A program made the translations under genes and the position numbers. Under the pieces are notes generated by a model, which worked only from the letters and a program-made list of their open reading frames with translations, was not told where the DNA came from and did not search any database. Below are positions 38,646 to 51,836 of a DNA stretch of 64,000 nucleotides, in pieces. Position 1 is the stretch's first letter. Each line of letters begins with the position of its first letter. Source of the DNA: Candidatus Omnitrophota bacterium (lineage in GTDB: Bacteria; Omnitrophota; Gorgyraeia; 1-14-0-20-64-10); assembly GCA_023818695.1 (NCBI GenBank), contig JAMWCF010000002.1:64066-128065 (forward strand), written 5' to 3'.

Positions 38646-38669
38646 GGGGGGAACGTTACAGTTCCCCCC
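38646..38669. repeat. G-rich perfect hairpin GGGGGGAAC-gttaca-GTTCCCCCC
   Basis: 9-bp perfect stem. Preceded by CCTTCCTCTTGGGGAGGGGGGTAT, which resembles the leader of the copies at 50.46 and 51.79 kb. Confidence 0.7.
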
Positions 38670-38718
38670 AATAAGACATAGGGCGCCGATTTTGGCGCCC
38701 CCTTAGGAAAGAGGAATA

Positions 38719-38748
38719 CTAGGGAGAAAACCTAGGTTTTCTCCCTAG
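38719..38748. repeat. 30-nt perfect palindrome CTAGGGAGAAAACCTAGGTTTTCTCCCTAG
   Basis: The sequence equals its own reverse complement (checked by hand). Arm core is GGGAGAAAACC. Confidence 0.7.
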
Positions 38749-38843
38749 ATACTTCCAAAGTTCCCCTGTTGGTTTGGTGAGGCCGTTAAGCCGGGAGGCA
38801 CAGGACCTTTGTTAAATGACAGATGGGAACTTCGGAAGTATAG

Positions 38844-38927
38844 TGCCGAGGCGGGGAGTTGAACCCCGATGAGCTTACGCCCACTACGCCCTGAACGTAG
38901 CGCGTCTGCCAGTTCCGCCACCTCGGC
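38844..38927 (-). tRNA. tRNA-Leu (anticodon CAG), long variable arm
   Basis: Reverse complement GCCGAGG-TG-GCGG..CGCG-CTACG-TTCAGGG-CGTAG-(variable arm)-CGGGG-TTCAACT-CCCCG-CCTCGGC-A folds as a class II cloverleaf. CCA is not encoded. Confidence 0.9.
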
Positions 38928-38939
38928 AAAAGAAGATTA

Positions 38940-39860
38940 ATGGCGACGAAACAGGATAACAGAAAGCGTTTGACCGCGTCAATCCGCCAGGGATTGGGAG
39001 CGGTCCGGGTCACGCAATTGAACCAGCTGATGGCCGGCCGCTCCGCGGTCGAAGGGAACTGGTCCTTGACGCCCCGGCATGAGATCCTCTACACCCGGTC
39101 CGGCGATAGGGAGGAGGCGGTTCTCCGGGGACGTCTGGCAGGCGCAGAGCCGGACGCCCTTCTTTTCCTGGTGAGCCAGACGCAGGAAGGGCAGCGCACG
39201 GAAACCCGCACGGTCCGGCTGCAGGGCCGTTGGGAAGCCGACCCCCTCAATCGGCTCGCCTTCCTTGTCGAGCGGGAAGAGGGGCGTTATGACCGTCTCA
39301 CGCTCGAGGGGATGTGGGAGGTCAACGACGCCCATCGGCTGATTTACCGCTCCGTCAGCCGTCCGGATTCGGGAAAGAGATCGACCGTGACCACCCTGAC
39401 TTTTCAAGGGGTTTGGGATATCGACGCTTCCAAGCGATTGGTCTATCTGCTGGATGCGGACGGGACATCCGGTTTCCGGTTCCGGGGCGCTTTTCAGACC
39501 CCCTCCATCCTGGCCAAGGAAGGTCGGATCCGCTACCAGGTCGGCATCGAGCTCAACGGCAAGCGCCGGTTTCAGACCGTCACCCTTTTCGGAAAATGGA
39601 AATTTTCCCGTGATTTGGCCCTTGAATTCGAGATGGACTACGGCAAGGGACGGAAGCGATCGATCCGGTTCGGCGCCGCGTACGAAGTCGGGCACCGCGG
39701 TTTCATCACGGCCCGGCTCATGAGCCGGGAGGGAAGACCTTTGGGGGTGGAGGTGGTTTTCGGCCTGGATCAGGTGTCGGCGGGGGGTCGGTTGTTCGGC
39801 CGATGGAGAAAATCCGGCAAGGAGACCACGGTGGAAGCCGGAGCCCGATGGCCGTGGTAG
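38940..39860 (+). CDS. Hypothetical repeat protein with about 5 tandem G-x-W beta modules
   Basis: Recurring module: LQGRWEADPLNRLAFLVE, LEGMWEVNDAHRLIYRSV, FQGVWDIDASKRLVYLLD, LFGKWKFSRDLALEFEMD. This internal periodicity favours the + ORF over the antisense 38979..39953 ORF. Confidence 0.55.
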   Translation: MATKQDNRKRLTASIRQGLGAVRVTQLNQLMAGRSAVEGNWSLTPRHEILYTRSGDREEAVLRGRLAGAEPDALLFLVSQTQEGQRTETRTVRLQGRWEADPLNRLAFLVEREEGRYDRLTLEGMWEVNDAHRLIYRSVSRPDSGKRSTVTTLTFQGVWDIDASKRLVYLLDADGTSGFRFRGAFQTPSILAKEGRIRYQVGIELNGKRRFQTVTLFGKWKFSRDLALEFEMDYGKGRKRSIRFGAAYEVGHRGFITARLMSREGRPLGVEVVFGLDQVSAGGRLFGRWRKSGKETTVEAGARWPW

Positions 39861-40018
39861 CCGATCCGCCAGCCGGCTCGGGTTTCCTTCGCAGGATTCC
39901 GTTGGGGGTTCTATGAGCATCTGGCTGTTGTGTTCGGCCTGCGGACGGCGCAACGGATCAGCGGTCTCTACCAGCGGTTTCTGCCTGAAAAGGTGCGCCG
40001 TTTCCTTCGGACCCGGCT

Positions 40019-50502: not shown

Positions 50503-50534
50503 CGCACCGATAGCATTTGCCGGATGGGGGAGTC

Positions 50535-50569
50535 CTGAGGGGGAAACCAGGCAGCGGTTTTCCCCTCAG
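50535..50569. repeat. G-rich hairpin CTGAGGGGGAAACC-aggcagc-GGTTTTCCCCTCAG
   Basis: 14-bp stem with one G-T pair, located between tRNA-Pro and tRNA-Arg. Confidence 0.7.
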
Positions 50570-50619
50570 AATGAGCCGCGGCAGAAGTGGGCTTAACGGG
50601 CTGACAAAAGTGGCTCATT

Positions 50620-50693
50620 GCGCCCATAGCTCAATTGGATAGAGCAGGGGACTTCTAATCCTCAGGTTGGCCGTTCGATTCGGCCTGGGCGCG
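50620..50693 (+). tRNA. tRNA-Arg (anticodon TCT)
   Basis: GCGCCCA-TA-GCTC..GAGC-A-GGGGA-CTTCTAA-TCCTC-AGGTT-GGCCG-TTCGATT-CGGCC-TGGGCGC-G cloverleaf. Confidence 0.9.
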
Positions 50694-50722
50694 TGAAATT
50701 TTCATTCAAGGGTTCGGGAGAG

Positions 50723-51784
50723 ATGGAGAAAACGGCGAAAACAAAATCAAACTGGCTATTGATCTGGCTTCTCGCCGCCGTCGCGATCGCCGGCGGCTAC
50801 TTGGGCGGCACCGTGGTCCTGAAAGGGGAAATGGAGAAGTGGATCGCCGACGCGGTTGGCCGTCCGGTCCAGATTGACGTCCTGCAGGGGACCTTTCCAC
50901 CCGGTATCACCGCCAAGGGGATTACCCTGGCGCAAGAGCCCGATGCAGCCAACCTCCCCTTTGCGATTCATAAAGTGATAGCCCGGTTTTCCTTCCTGTC
51001 CCTTCTGCGCGGGCAGTTCGGGTTGGATGTGGAGCTGATTTCCCCGGTCATTTCCATGGAGCGTTCGTCGGATGGGACATGGCGCCTGCCGGTGAACGCC
51101 CGCTCGGCCGGAGGCGGACGGGGCGGTCTGCCGGTTGTCCGTTTGAGGGTACGCGACGCGGAGATCACGATTATTGACAAATTCGTCAGTCCGGAAGCCA
51201 TGTGGTTTTTCCGGAAGGTCAGCTTGAGTGCCAAAAGGGAGGCGGGCGGCCTGTACATGTACACCTTTTTGAGCGCTCTGGAGGGGTTGGACCGCCAGCC
51301 GGTCGGGCAGGTGGGGGTCACTGGATCGGTCTCTTTCAAGGAACAGGCCGCCGAAGCGCATTTGTCTGCGGATTACAGCGCCCTGGAGTTCCTGGCCCCT
51401 TACATACAGCTTGCCATCGGCGCCGCCCCGAGCCGGGGAACGTGCTCCATCAACAGCGCGATCACCGTGCGCGGAAGGGAATTTTCAGCCGACACGAAAT
51501 TCATCGGCAAGGGAATCCTCTTCGCGATGGAACAGCCGACCGCGCTGGGCCCCTCCGGCAACCGCCTTGTCGAGCTCCTGAAAGACAGGGAGGGCAGGGT
51601 GCACCTGACCTTCACGATCGCCGGCAAACTCGGCGAGCAGATGGACTGGTCCGGCCTGATCACGGGCACCGTCCGGGAAGCGATGCGTCAGGCGATGGCC
51701 AGATCGATCCAGAAAGTGCTGGGCAGCTCCGAGACCAACGTGGGCGAAAGCGTTCAAAAGGGCGTTGAATCCCTCGGAAGATAA
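50723..51784 (+). CDS. Membrane-anchored AsmA-like/DUF748-like protein (hypothetical)
   Basis: The ATG at 50723 avoids overlap with tRNA-Arg (the ORF opens at GTG 50693). N-terminal TM helix (WLLIWLLAAVAIAGGYLGG), then GRPVQIDVLQGTFPPGITAKGITL, similar to the start of AsmA-type proteins. Confidence 0.45.
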   Translation: MEKTAKTKSNWLLIWLLAAVAIAGGYLGGTVVLKGEMEKWIADAVGRPVQIDVLQGTFPPGITAKGITLAQEPDAANLPFAIHKVIARFSFLSLLRGQFGLDVELISPVISMERSSDGTWRLPVNARSAGGGRGGLPVVRLRVRDAEITIIDKFVSPEAMWFFRKVSLSAKREAGGLYMYTFLSALEGLDRQPVGQVGVTGSVSFKEQAAEAHLSADYSALEFLAPYIQLAIGAAPSRGTCSINSAITVRGREFSADTKFIGKGILFAMEQPTALGPSGNRLVELLKDREGRVHLTFTIAGKLGEQMDWSGLITGTVREAMRQAMARSIQKVLGSSETNVGESVQKGVESLGR

Positions 51785-51807
51785 CCTTCCTCTTAGAAAA
51801 AGGGGAT

Positions 51808-51836
51808 TTCGGGGGAAATGTAAAATTTCCCCCGAA
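51808..51836. repeat. G-rich perfect hairpin TTCGGGGGAAAT-gtaaa-ATTTCCCCCGAA
   Basis: 12-bp perfect stem with the same GTAAA loop and the same TAACCTTCCTCTTAGAAAAAGGGGAT leader as the copy at 50.47 kb. Lies 10 nt upstream of tRNA-His. Confidence 0.75.

Follow-up and report, generated by a model that had tools for sequence, protein, structure and literature searches.

The 64-kb stretch of DNA from an Omnitrophota bacterium analysed here (the window, whose positions serve as hairpin coordinates) carries four stable-RNA loci, and in the spacers of each lie the G-rich hairpins that are the subject of this report. tRNA-Leu(CAG) occupies 38843..38927 on the − strand (ARAGORN) and the tmRNA 41972..42376 on the + strand (ARAGORN; Rfam RF00023, 169.7 bits). 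Also on the + strand, and found by both ARAGORN and Rfam, are tRNA-Pro(TGG) at 50373..50447, tRNA-Arg(TCT) at 50619..50694 and tRNA-His(GTG) at 51848..51924. Both programs agree with the gene assignments made in an earlier note on this DNA, which had read six hairpins by eye from the letters alone.

All six were recovered when the sequence was re-read: 38645-38670 (perfect 10-bp stem, loop GTTACA), 38719-38748 (a perfect palindrome of 30 nt), 42444-42470 (12 bp, loop ATA), 50474-50502 (12 bp, loop GTAAA), 50535-50569 (14 bp including one G-T pair, loop AGGCAGC) and 51808-51836 (12 bp, loop GTAAA). Their number far exceeds the chance level, set by 30 first-order Markov simulations with loops of up to 10 nt. 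Perfect stems of at least 12 bp occur four times in the 64 kb, all among these hairpins, against a simulated mean of 0.07; stems of at least 9 bp occur 14 times against 3.1. The pattern GGGGRAAY-N2-10-RTTYCCCC has three matches in the window, with 0.00 expected. As had been claimed, all hairpins lie in non-coding spacers, and the open reading frames (ORFs) that overlap them are spurious. A search for such spurious ORFs over copies elsewhere, made with a chimeric six-frame translation of the element against a set of 5.8 billion proteins, gave zero matches.

The six hairpins are not independent motifs. They are the first and second hairpins (HP1 and HP2) of one composite module, which the earlier note overlooked. 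Its order is a pyrimidine-rich leader, HP1, a purine-rich linker, HP2 and a variable long stem, HP3, that extends to the tRNA border; a full copy measures about 170-230 nt, and copies overall range from about 60 to 230 bases. In local alignments the type 1 module combines the leader and its terminal G-run (CTTAGAAAAGGGGGTAT) with the G-run hairpin HP1. The type 2 module joins the purine-rich linker (TTTGCCGGATGGGGGAGTC or AGGAAAGAGGAATA) to HP2, a hairpin with AACC/GGTT arm ends and the conserved loop AGGCAGC (CTGAGGGGGAAACC-AGGCAGC-GGTTTTCCCCTCAG). At 38612-38748 and at 50448-50569, HP1 is followed in tandem by HP2, and the flank of the tmRNA repeats this arrangement, its HP1-like hairpin being at 42396-42422; further hairpins within the composites lie at 38681-38700, 38749-38841 and 50571-50618. 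The window thus holds three full or partial composites (copy C, the tmRNA-flank copy and copy A) and one truncated copy (B), each 0-11 nt from a stable-RNA gene. This tight abutment, also missed before, is seen at six RNA-gene borders when the relatives described below are included.

Copy C (38612..38841, +) adjoins the 3′ end of tRNA-Leu. Its leader (38612-38644) has a small hairpin of its own at 38614-38640 and is followed by HP1 (38645-38670, TGGGGGGAAC-GTTACA-GTTCCCCCCA), an extra GC hairpin (38681-38700), the purine-rich linker (38701-38718) and HP2 (38719-38748), the perfect palindrome. HP3 is a 17-bp inverted repeat (38749-38765 / 38825-38841) that ends 1 nt short of the tRNA-Leu 3′ end. 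Copy C scores E=3e-15 (type 1) and 1.4e-10 (type 2) in nhmmer and 63 bits with covariance model R1, and the tmRNA-flank copy (42377..42498, +) scores 30.6 bits (E ~3e-6) with the same model; these values are partly circular, both copies being in the seed alignments. The tmRNA-flank copy comprises the HP1-like G-run hairpin (42396-42422, CAGGGGTGGTC-AGGGG-GACCGCCCCTG), a purine-rich linker (42423-42443) and HP2 (42444-42470).

Copy A (50448..50618, +) occupies the entire spacer between tRNA-Pro and tRNA-Arg, with its leader at 50448-50473, HP1 at 50474-50502, linker at 50503-50534 and HP2 at 50535-50569; its HP3 (50571-50618, ATGAGCCGC...GTGGCTCAT) stops at the first base of tRNA-Arg. The truncated copy B (51785..51847, +) lies between the stop codon of the DUF748 gene and tRNA-His and retains the leader (51785-51807), HP1 (51808-51836) and a linker of about 9 nt (GAATAGTCC). 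The leader and GTAAA loop that the earlier note saw in common between copies A and B hold up at 89% identity over 45 nt, and its related leader in copy C shares GGGGGTATA and the G-run, in local alignment and with nhmmer. Copies A, B, C and a metagenomic copy, L009, can be aligned as one family, B being 94% identical to L009 over 47 nt. The HP1 stems vary from copy to copy yet always pair: ATCGGGGGGAAT in A, TTCGGGGGAAAT in B and L009, TGGGGGGAAC in C, CAGGGGTGGTC in the tmRNA flank and TGTGCGGGGGAGT in L028, a relative introduced below. Identical versions of copies A and B are found in Logan assemblies made independently from two samples, so that neither is an assembly artefact.

Several identifications were tried and set aside. 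The element matches no family of Rfam 15, in which only the tRNAs and the tmRNA reach the gathering score and the sub-threshold matches are noise; E-value scans against Rfam rule out a signal recognition particle RNA, a ribozyme or another known RNA. A reading of HP1 as a promoter (TTAGAA ... TAAAAT) fails on its spacer of 22-23 nt and on the absence of the motif from copy C, and a consensus promoter scan found no promoter-like site inside the elements. An AUG-UAA mini-ORF in the GTAAA loop, preceded by the Shine-Dalgarno-like AAGGGGG, is conserved in neither copy C nor L028. The stretch AATTCCCCCCG, which had been noted as common to HP1 of copy A and the tmRNA T-arm, is indeed present in both, at weak significance (two matches against 0.17 expected), and we keep an origin of HP1 from the T-arm as a remark only.

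To follow the family beyond the window, we searched for the exact pattern GGGGRAATGTAAAATTYCCCC in genome contigs (GTDB representatives) and in metagenome contigs, two collections from which the metagenome-assembled genome that holds the window is absent. The four matches in genome contigs are all unrelated chance occurrences. Among the five metagenomic stretches matched, L009 (OBEQ010475067.1) alone is related; viral contigs gave zero matches. Neither nhmmer (window and loci of five relatives) nor a covariance-model scan of 145 kb (window and ten loci) revealed further copies. L009 has the leader, HP1, linker and HP2, is 82% identical to copy A over 114 ungapped nt, and precedes a trpF gene of Omnitrophota type; in a relative, L022, trpC and trpF overlap and leave no spacer. 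ARAGORN finds no tRNA on the L009 contig, which spans 34 nt upstream and about 1.3 kb downstream of the element. The confinement to stable-RNA spacers claimed in the earlier note therefore stands for the four loci of the window and falls as a rule for the family. In the window, all four stable-RNA loci carry the family as against none of about eight other genuine spacers (on a crude ORF map, with the folds of the gaps read); an exact calculation puts this association at ~0.002, a rough figure that rests on the same map.

Loci around DUF748 homologues gave the orthologous comparison. The order tRNA-Pro, tRNA-Arg, DUF748, tRNA-His is conserved, and the tRNA spacers are compact and hairpin-free in most relatives: the Pro-Arg spacer measures 171 nt in the window, compared with 13 (L018), 17 (L024), 17 (L026), 17 (L029) and 25 (L028). 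L028 instead carries a full composite of 182 nt between a conserved −10 box (TACAAT) and tRNA-Pro. Its element is 83% identical to copy A over 83 nt. At the same place L029 has 9 nt, within flanks 74-92% identical to those of L028. The two form a clean filled/empty pair between close relatives, one of the presence/absence differences that the earlier note had proposed to look for in orthologous spacers. The insertion point around tRNA-Pro thus varies, being upstream in L028 and downstream in the window and in L011. In L011, the closest relative of the window, HP2 and HP3 (a perfect 14-bp stem) end exactly at tRNA-Arg, as in copy A, and the upstream half of the element is broken by a different inverted-repeat element and heptamer repeats. 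Copy B is missing from the DUF748-tRNA-His spacer in L012, L016, L018, L028 and L029.

The ends of the element were compared for signs of transposition. Between L029 and L028, 9 nt (TTCGTTCTC) are replaced by 182 nt; the right end in L028 (ATTTGTTC) resembles the empty site, and the match on the left belongs to the element's own leader. We found no convincing target-site duplications and no terminal inverted repeats: the ends of A, L028 and L009 have no inverted identity, and only the internal hairpins are inverted. Three window copies have the left flanks GATAAC, GATAAC and TTCAAC, which are common to neither L028 nor L009; a YAAC target on the left flank is speculation.

At two of the window loci the hairpins are bracketed by direct repeats of the RNA gene's 3′ end, a further feature overlooked earlier. 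The end of tRNA-Leu, from the T-loop to the 3′ end plus 1-2 nt, recurs at 38454..38473 (− strand), 20 of 20 nt matching 38842-38861 at a spacing of 388. For the tmRNA, 42350-42376 is repeated at 42499..42525 (+ strand; repeat D1) with 23 of 27 nt identical (85%) and a spacing of 149; 18 nt of this 27-nt displaced end are exact (TTCCCCCCGCCTCCACCA). Both repeats run from the T-loop to the 3′ end, in the classic att arrangement, and the DNA that they enclose (368 nt at tRNA-Leu, 122 nt at the tmRNA) is non-coding and has no integrase. We read both as att-like scars, left by integrated elements that were very small or have decayed. Repeats of this kind occur at tRNA-Leu and the tmRNA only; the 3′ ends of tRNA-Pro and tRNA-His have no second copy in the window. 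The tmRNA T-arm (42351-42364) has, in addition, a perfect inverted copy (14/14) at 42383-42396, 18 nt downstream, which would compete with folding of the T-arm in the precursor transcript. More GGGTTCAA fragments follow the tmRNA at 42389 (inverted) and 42424.

The element has a consistent orientation. Its leader-to-HP3 direction equals that of the flanking genes in all six independent loci, and in the window the GC skew is positive throughout on the element strand. Near copies A and B there is a single promoter-like site, at 50321-50348, upstream of tRNA-Pro. A canonical intrinsic terminator (51932..51975, +; a perfect 12-bp stem followed by TTTTTT) lies 3′ of tRNA-His, which shows that the host uses ordinary U-tract terminators, and it probably marks the end of a transcription unit from tRNA-Pro to tRNA-His. 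Copies A and B would then most probably be transcribed within one operon and so be poor candidates for terminators. No hairpin of the family is followed by a U-tract on the + strand, as the earlier note had observed, and none therefore has the hairpin and U-tract of an intrinsic terminator on the transcribed strand; terminator-like structures in the region number 17, against 17.1 in shuffled sequence. On the − strand, T-rich runs begin 0-12 nt after the hairpins: CCCCTTTT(T)CT comes after the HP1 copies and TATTCCTCTT after HP2 of copy C (38748-38719). Judging from these strand-specific runs, the element may be found in this orientation simply because the other one would terminate the host operon.

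Folding of the spacers is markedly more stable than that of shuffled controls (z = -4.2 to -8.8; -5.7 for the spacer with copy A). In HP2, 7 of the 14 pairs show compensatory changes on both sides and 91% of cells are paired, in an alignment of six copies to a covariance model built from those same copies and hence fitted to the model. In 500 shuffles, neither the observed covariation score nor the count of both-sided changes was reached once, and slid registers pair much less (37-61% of cells). The rows of A, B and L009 (HP1 from all three, HP2 from A and L009) add three more compensatory pairs with 100% pairing. G-U wobbles in A and L009 pair on the + (transcribed) strand only; in L011, an A-C mismatch on the + strand corresponds to a G-U pair on the opposite one. 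The HP3 stems are wholly different in sequence, yet each is well paired and stops where the tRNA begins or ends. Between genomes, the loops GTAAA and AGGCAGC and the linker stretch TTTGCCGGA are conserved. Between L028 and the window, DNA identity is 67-71% for housekeeping genes, 78% for tRNA-Arg, 91% for tRNA-Pro and 83% for the element.

We propose that the hairpins are probably modules of a lineage-specific, non-autonomous repeat of Omnitrophota, mobile or formerly mobile, of the MITE (miniature inverted-repeat transposable element), REP (repetitive extragenic palindromic) or BIME (bacterial interspersed mosaic element) type. The copies inserted independently into transcribed spacers, mostly right beside a tRNA gene or the tmRNA gene, and they always point the same way as the genes around them. 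Among the options left open in the earlier note, we favour the REP/MITE-like one because of the filled/empty pair L028/L029, the different positions around tRNA-Pro in different lineages, the L009 copy before trpF, and the compact, hairpin-free tRNA spacers of most relatives; the stronger conservation of the element than of its housekeeping surroundings was counted in its favour as well. The evidence does not support the option that the hairpins serve stable-RNA genes in general as processing or termination signals: they are absent from most relatives' orthologous tRNA loci, have no U-tract on the transcribed strand and, in A and B, lie inside an apparent single unit from tRNA-Pro to tRNA-His.

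Under the proposed mobile repeat, the spacers of tRNA operons would be the safest landing sites in a compact genome, because the RNA on either side of the tRNAs is removed by RNase P and the 3′-end processing enzymes; insertion there would disrupt neither a gene nor translational coupling. The orientation seen would keep the hairpin-plus-T-run off the transcribed strand and leave the operon unterminated. Once transcribed, the modules would form highly stable stem-loops, and these could act, like REPs, as exonuclease barriers or processing boundaries. A transposase of IS200/IS605 or RAYT type, recognising hairpins in single-stranded DNA, would speculatively fit better than cut-and-paste transposition: the hairpins are subterminal, the orientation is biased, and neither terminal inverted repeats nor convincing target duplications were found. 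Tolerance would then explain why the family is associated with tRNA loci, as tRNA spacers are processed away and the genome has little other non-coding DNA to offer; it is possible that tRNA borders are actively targeted, as the copies abut them within 0-11 nt.

Several observations weigh against this proposal. There are just 3-4 copies in 64 kb, and zero in about 64 kb from L012, L016, L018, L022, L024 and L026. The terminal inverted repeats and convincing target-site duplications looked for were not found, nor was a transposase among the approximately 12 window ORFs scanned. Copy A and the L011 copy share their HP2-HP3-tRNA-Arg position between genomes whose housekeeping genes are at 69% nucleotide identity; this implies long retention, which fits function as well as neutrality. 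The conserved loops and linker, together with the compensatory pairs of HP2, are what a selected RNA or protein-binding structure would show. Finally, the 34 nt available upstream in L009 are too short to exclude a nearby tRNA.

These points lead to the explanation that we take most seriously among the alternatives, although we judge it unlikely: a functional structured RNA of Omnitrophota in the leaders and spacers of tRNA operons, freed by RNase P and the 3′-end enzymes as a small RNA or acting as a processing or stability element, and kept by selection instead of mobility. It would account for the compensatory changes in HP2 unmatched by any shuffle, for the further compensatory pairs and complete pairing in A, B and L009, and for the wobbles that pair only as transcribed. 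The loops and linker are conserved at a tRNA-like level (83% against 67-71% in coding DNA), three spacers fold with z = -5.7, -6.2 and -8.8, and HP3 keeps its pairing and its end at the tRNA border while changing its sequence. The sense orientation is invariable, with the L028 copy just 3′ of the −10 box and window copies between co-oriented tRNAs, and the HP2-HP3-tRNA-Arg arrangement has long been retained in the window and L011. Against such a function, the orthologous tRNA operons of L018, L024, L026, L029 and L016 work without the element, its position depends on the lineage, one site is filled in L028 and empty in L029, the L009 copy stands before trpF with no tRNA seen, and copy B is a truncated fragment. 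The mismatch in L011 pairs on the wrong strand for an RNA. Template-switch repair of quasi-palindromes can perfect stems without selection, and the alignment behind the covariation was fitted to its model. That the element is something more novel, either an Omnitrophota-specific structured RNA released by tRNA-processing enzymes or a hairpin-guided derivative of a single-strand DNA transposon that targets the borders of tRNA-like genes, seems to us quite doubtful; to our knowledge, targeting of such borders has not been described for bacterial non-autonomous repeats.

The other explanations assign the hairpins to transcription, integration or regulation. As remnants of decayed integrase islands in the 3′ ends of tRNA-Leu and the tmRNA (attL/attR scars), with hairpins that once bound a recombinase or accessory protein, they would explain the repeats bracketing them at both loci, the additional direct and inverted T-arm fragments after the tmRNA, the AATTCCCCCCG that copy A HP1 shares with the T-arm, and a low-GC defence island after tRNA-His. 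This is very unlikely: such duplications are missing at A, B, L028, L011 and L009, no integrase is near, the L028 insertion lies upstream of a tRNA and not in a 3′ end, and one module at several unrelated target genes is unlike the att site of one integrase. More probably the att-like scars record separate events at the same hot spots. Transcription terminators for stable-RNA genes and their neighbours, possibly bidirectional and without a U-tract, are suggested by GC-rich perfect stems after genes, by the T-rich runs on the − strand and by the place of copy C between convergent genes (a methyltransferase on +, tRNA-Leu on −); hairpins without strong T-runs are found at other gene ends of the window too, for example at 21924-21944. 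Termination is nonetheless highly improbable, as it would have to do without any + strand U-tract, in A and B upstream of tRNA-Arg and tRNA-His, which have no promoter-like site of their own, and in a unit already served by the canonical terminator 3′ of tRNA-His. In L028, where the element separates the promoter from the first tRNA, it would silence the operon, and the number of terminator-like structures equals the shuffled expectation. Operators, that is, palindromes bound by a dimeric protein regulating stable-RNA operons, would agree with the perfect dyad symmetry, with conserved half-sites (GGGGGAAT / ATTCCCCC) near tRNA promoters and with the L028 palindrome beside the −10 box. The half-sites differ widely while pairing is kept, which points to a hairpin and not to a fixed recognition sequence; most copies, moreover, lie downstream of or between genes, not at promoters, and most relatives have none. 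We regard operators as extremely unlikely.

The mobile-repeat reading also agrees with what else is found in these places. As the same spacers carry other selfish DNA in relatives, the flanks of these tRNAs are general hot spots of insertion. An unrelated small element with CGTCATTGCGAG inverted ends (CGTCATTGCGA(G)...CTCGCAATGACG) lies in the Pro-Arg spacer in L011 (6774-6945) and directly after the tmRNA in L018 (2648-2735). The L011 copy of this second element also encloses the tandem heptamers AACTGGCC / GAACCGGC. In L029, an ORF for a 154-aa HNH endonuclease (2135-2599) stands between DUF748 and tRNA-His, and L028 has the 3′ remnant alone of such an ORF (7053-7110). A 219-aa HTH_23 protein (9170-9847) fills the 679-nt Pro-Arg spacer of L016. 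In L024, a serine-recombinase island appears to truncate DUF748; the DUF748 protein is shorter (267 aa against ~350) in L024/L025 (6001-8455) and L026 (1382-4149), where tRNA-His is followed by a large serine recombinase gene and an island that includes an SLFN/AlbA_2 gene.

In the window itself, GC content falls from ~0.60 to ~0.50 over 52000-64000 and the AT skew turns positive right after tRNA-His. The genes there encode DUF6933, SLFN/AlbA_2, HTH_17, a KAP NTPase and a type I restriction-modification system (HsdM, HsdS, HsdR). By its composition and gene content, this region looks like a defence island integrated at tRNA-His, whose far end would lie beyond the window, as the window has no second tRNA-His 3′ end. 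At the near border, gene callers place an ORF of 231 aa (51845-52540) that weakly matches ParB-HTH; as its first 80 nt lie over tRNA-His, the true start is probably further downstream.

The tag encoded by the tmRNA is unusually long, with 25 residues (AKNMVNGFAPVVPIRPIAAPMALAA), and is conserved in the distant relative L018 (AKNMVKGIAPVVPMRPAVVPMALAA; tmRNA at 2219-2627). At the other end of the window, a giant ORF (3-10235, at least 3410 aa) runs off the start and has weak matches to GHMP-kinase N, phosphoglucomutase domain I and ROK; L016 and L017 have a gene of 3494 aa beside the same tRNA operon. Short-read assemblies of the same strain (L001, L019 and L020, spanning 38898-42374, 50372-61784 and 46593-51883 of the window) break in or at the edge of tRNA-Leu, the tmRNA, tRNA-Pro and tRNA-His, and the contig of L021 begins inside the element's linker. 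Stable-RNA loci thus fragment metagenome assemblies.

Omnitrophota are uncultured, and a defined multi-hairpin element with a working covariance model is now in hand for them. With this model one can follow insertions at the level of strains, account for the contig breaks that metagenome assemblies show at tRNA genes, and keep ORFs from being miscalled in spacers. The transcribed and discarded spacers of tRNA operons gather many kinds of selfish DNA, among them the present element, the second inverted-repeat element, ORFs resembling homing endonucleases, and islands. Should a processed RNA or active targeting of tRNA borders prove true, the interest would be wider; on present evidence this is an ordinary type of feature in an unusual phylum.

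Integrative elements leave att duplications at tRNA and tmRNA genes, and repeated 3′-end units occur downstream of E. coli tyrT. The present loci are alike in that repeats of the final 18-20 nt, at tRNA-Leu and at the tmRNA, surround inserted DNA; the bracketed DNA here is unlike in being just 122-368 nt long without an integrase, and most copies of the module lack repeats. With intrinsic terminators the element shares a stable GC-rich hairpin after a gene, and it differs in having no U-tract on the transcribed strand and in standing upstream of co-transcribed genes. The PATEs derived from IS200/IS605 and the repeats mobilised by RAYTs (Y1 transposases) have subterminal hairpins, no target duplication, and a bias of strand or orientation. 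The element resembles them in its hairpins and its bias, in showing no convincing target duplication, and perhaps also in a short target at the left flank, seen in the window copies only; unlike them, it has no Y1 transposase gene in view among the ORFs scanned.

Families of stem-loop sequences are common in bacteria (PMC2267715). Prokaryotic MITEs in particular include clustered small repeats, truncated copies that resemble bare palindromes, and insertions in 3′ untranslated regions (UTRs) (PMC10969869). With MITEs, the BOX, RUP and SPRITE repeats of pneumococcus and QMITE2 of Coxiella, the present element has in common a length of 100-250 nt, an intergenic location, strong secondary structure, filled and empty sites, truncated palindrome-like copies, and adjacent or nested clusters (PMC10969869). 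Being small, non-coding, and filled at some sites and empty at others among relatives, it behaves as a MITE does; having neither terminal inverted repeats nor a clear target-site duplication, it falls outside the formal definition. To the REPs and BIMEs of Enterobacteria and Pseudomonas it is akin as a set of short GC-rich extragenic palindromes, of 20-40 nt and outside coding regions, in mosaic clusters with other short motifs. Like them it is non-coding and non-autonomous, is co-transcribed in 3′ UTRs or intra-operon spacers, and may form RNA stem-loop barriers. It departs from them in lacking the GTAG-type 5′ tetranucleotide and the inverted doublets known as REPINs, all its modules having one orientation, and in being a fixed composite of 170-230 nt with three different hairpins, where a REP is one palindrome of 20-40 nt; no RAYT gene was seen among the ORFs scanned, and REPs do not sit so close against tRNA borders. 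Searches of the full-text literature found no description of a repeat family of this kind in Omnitrophota. We regard the element as a new family within a well-known class of DNA repeats, selfish or structural. It is somewhat unusual in that its three hairpins form a fixed composite and that its copies directly adjoin the borders of tRNA genes.

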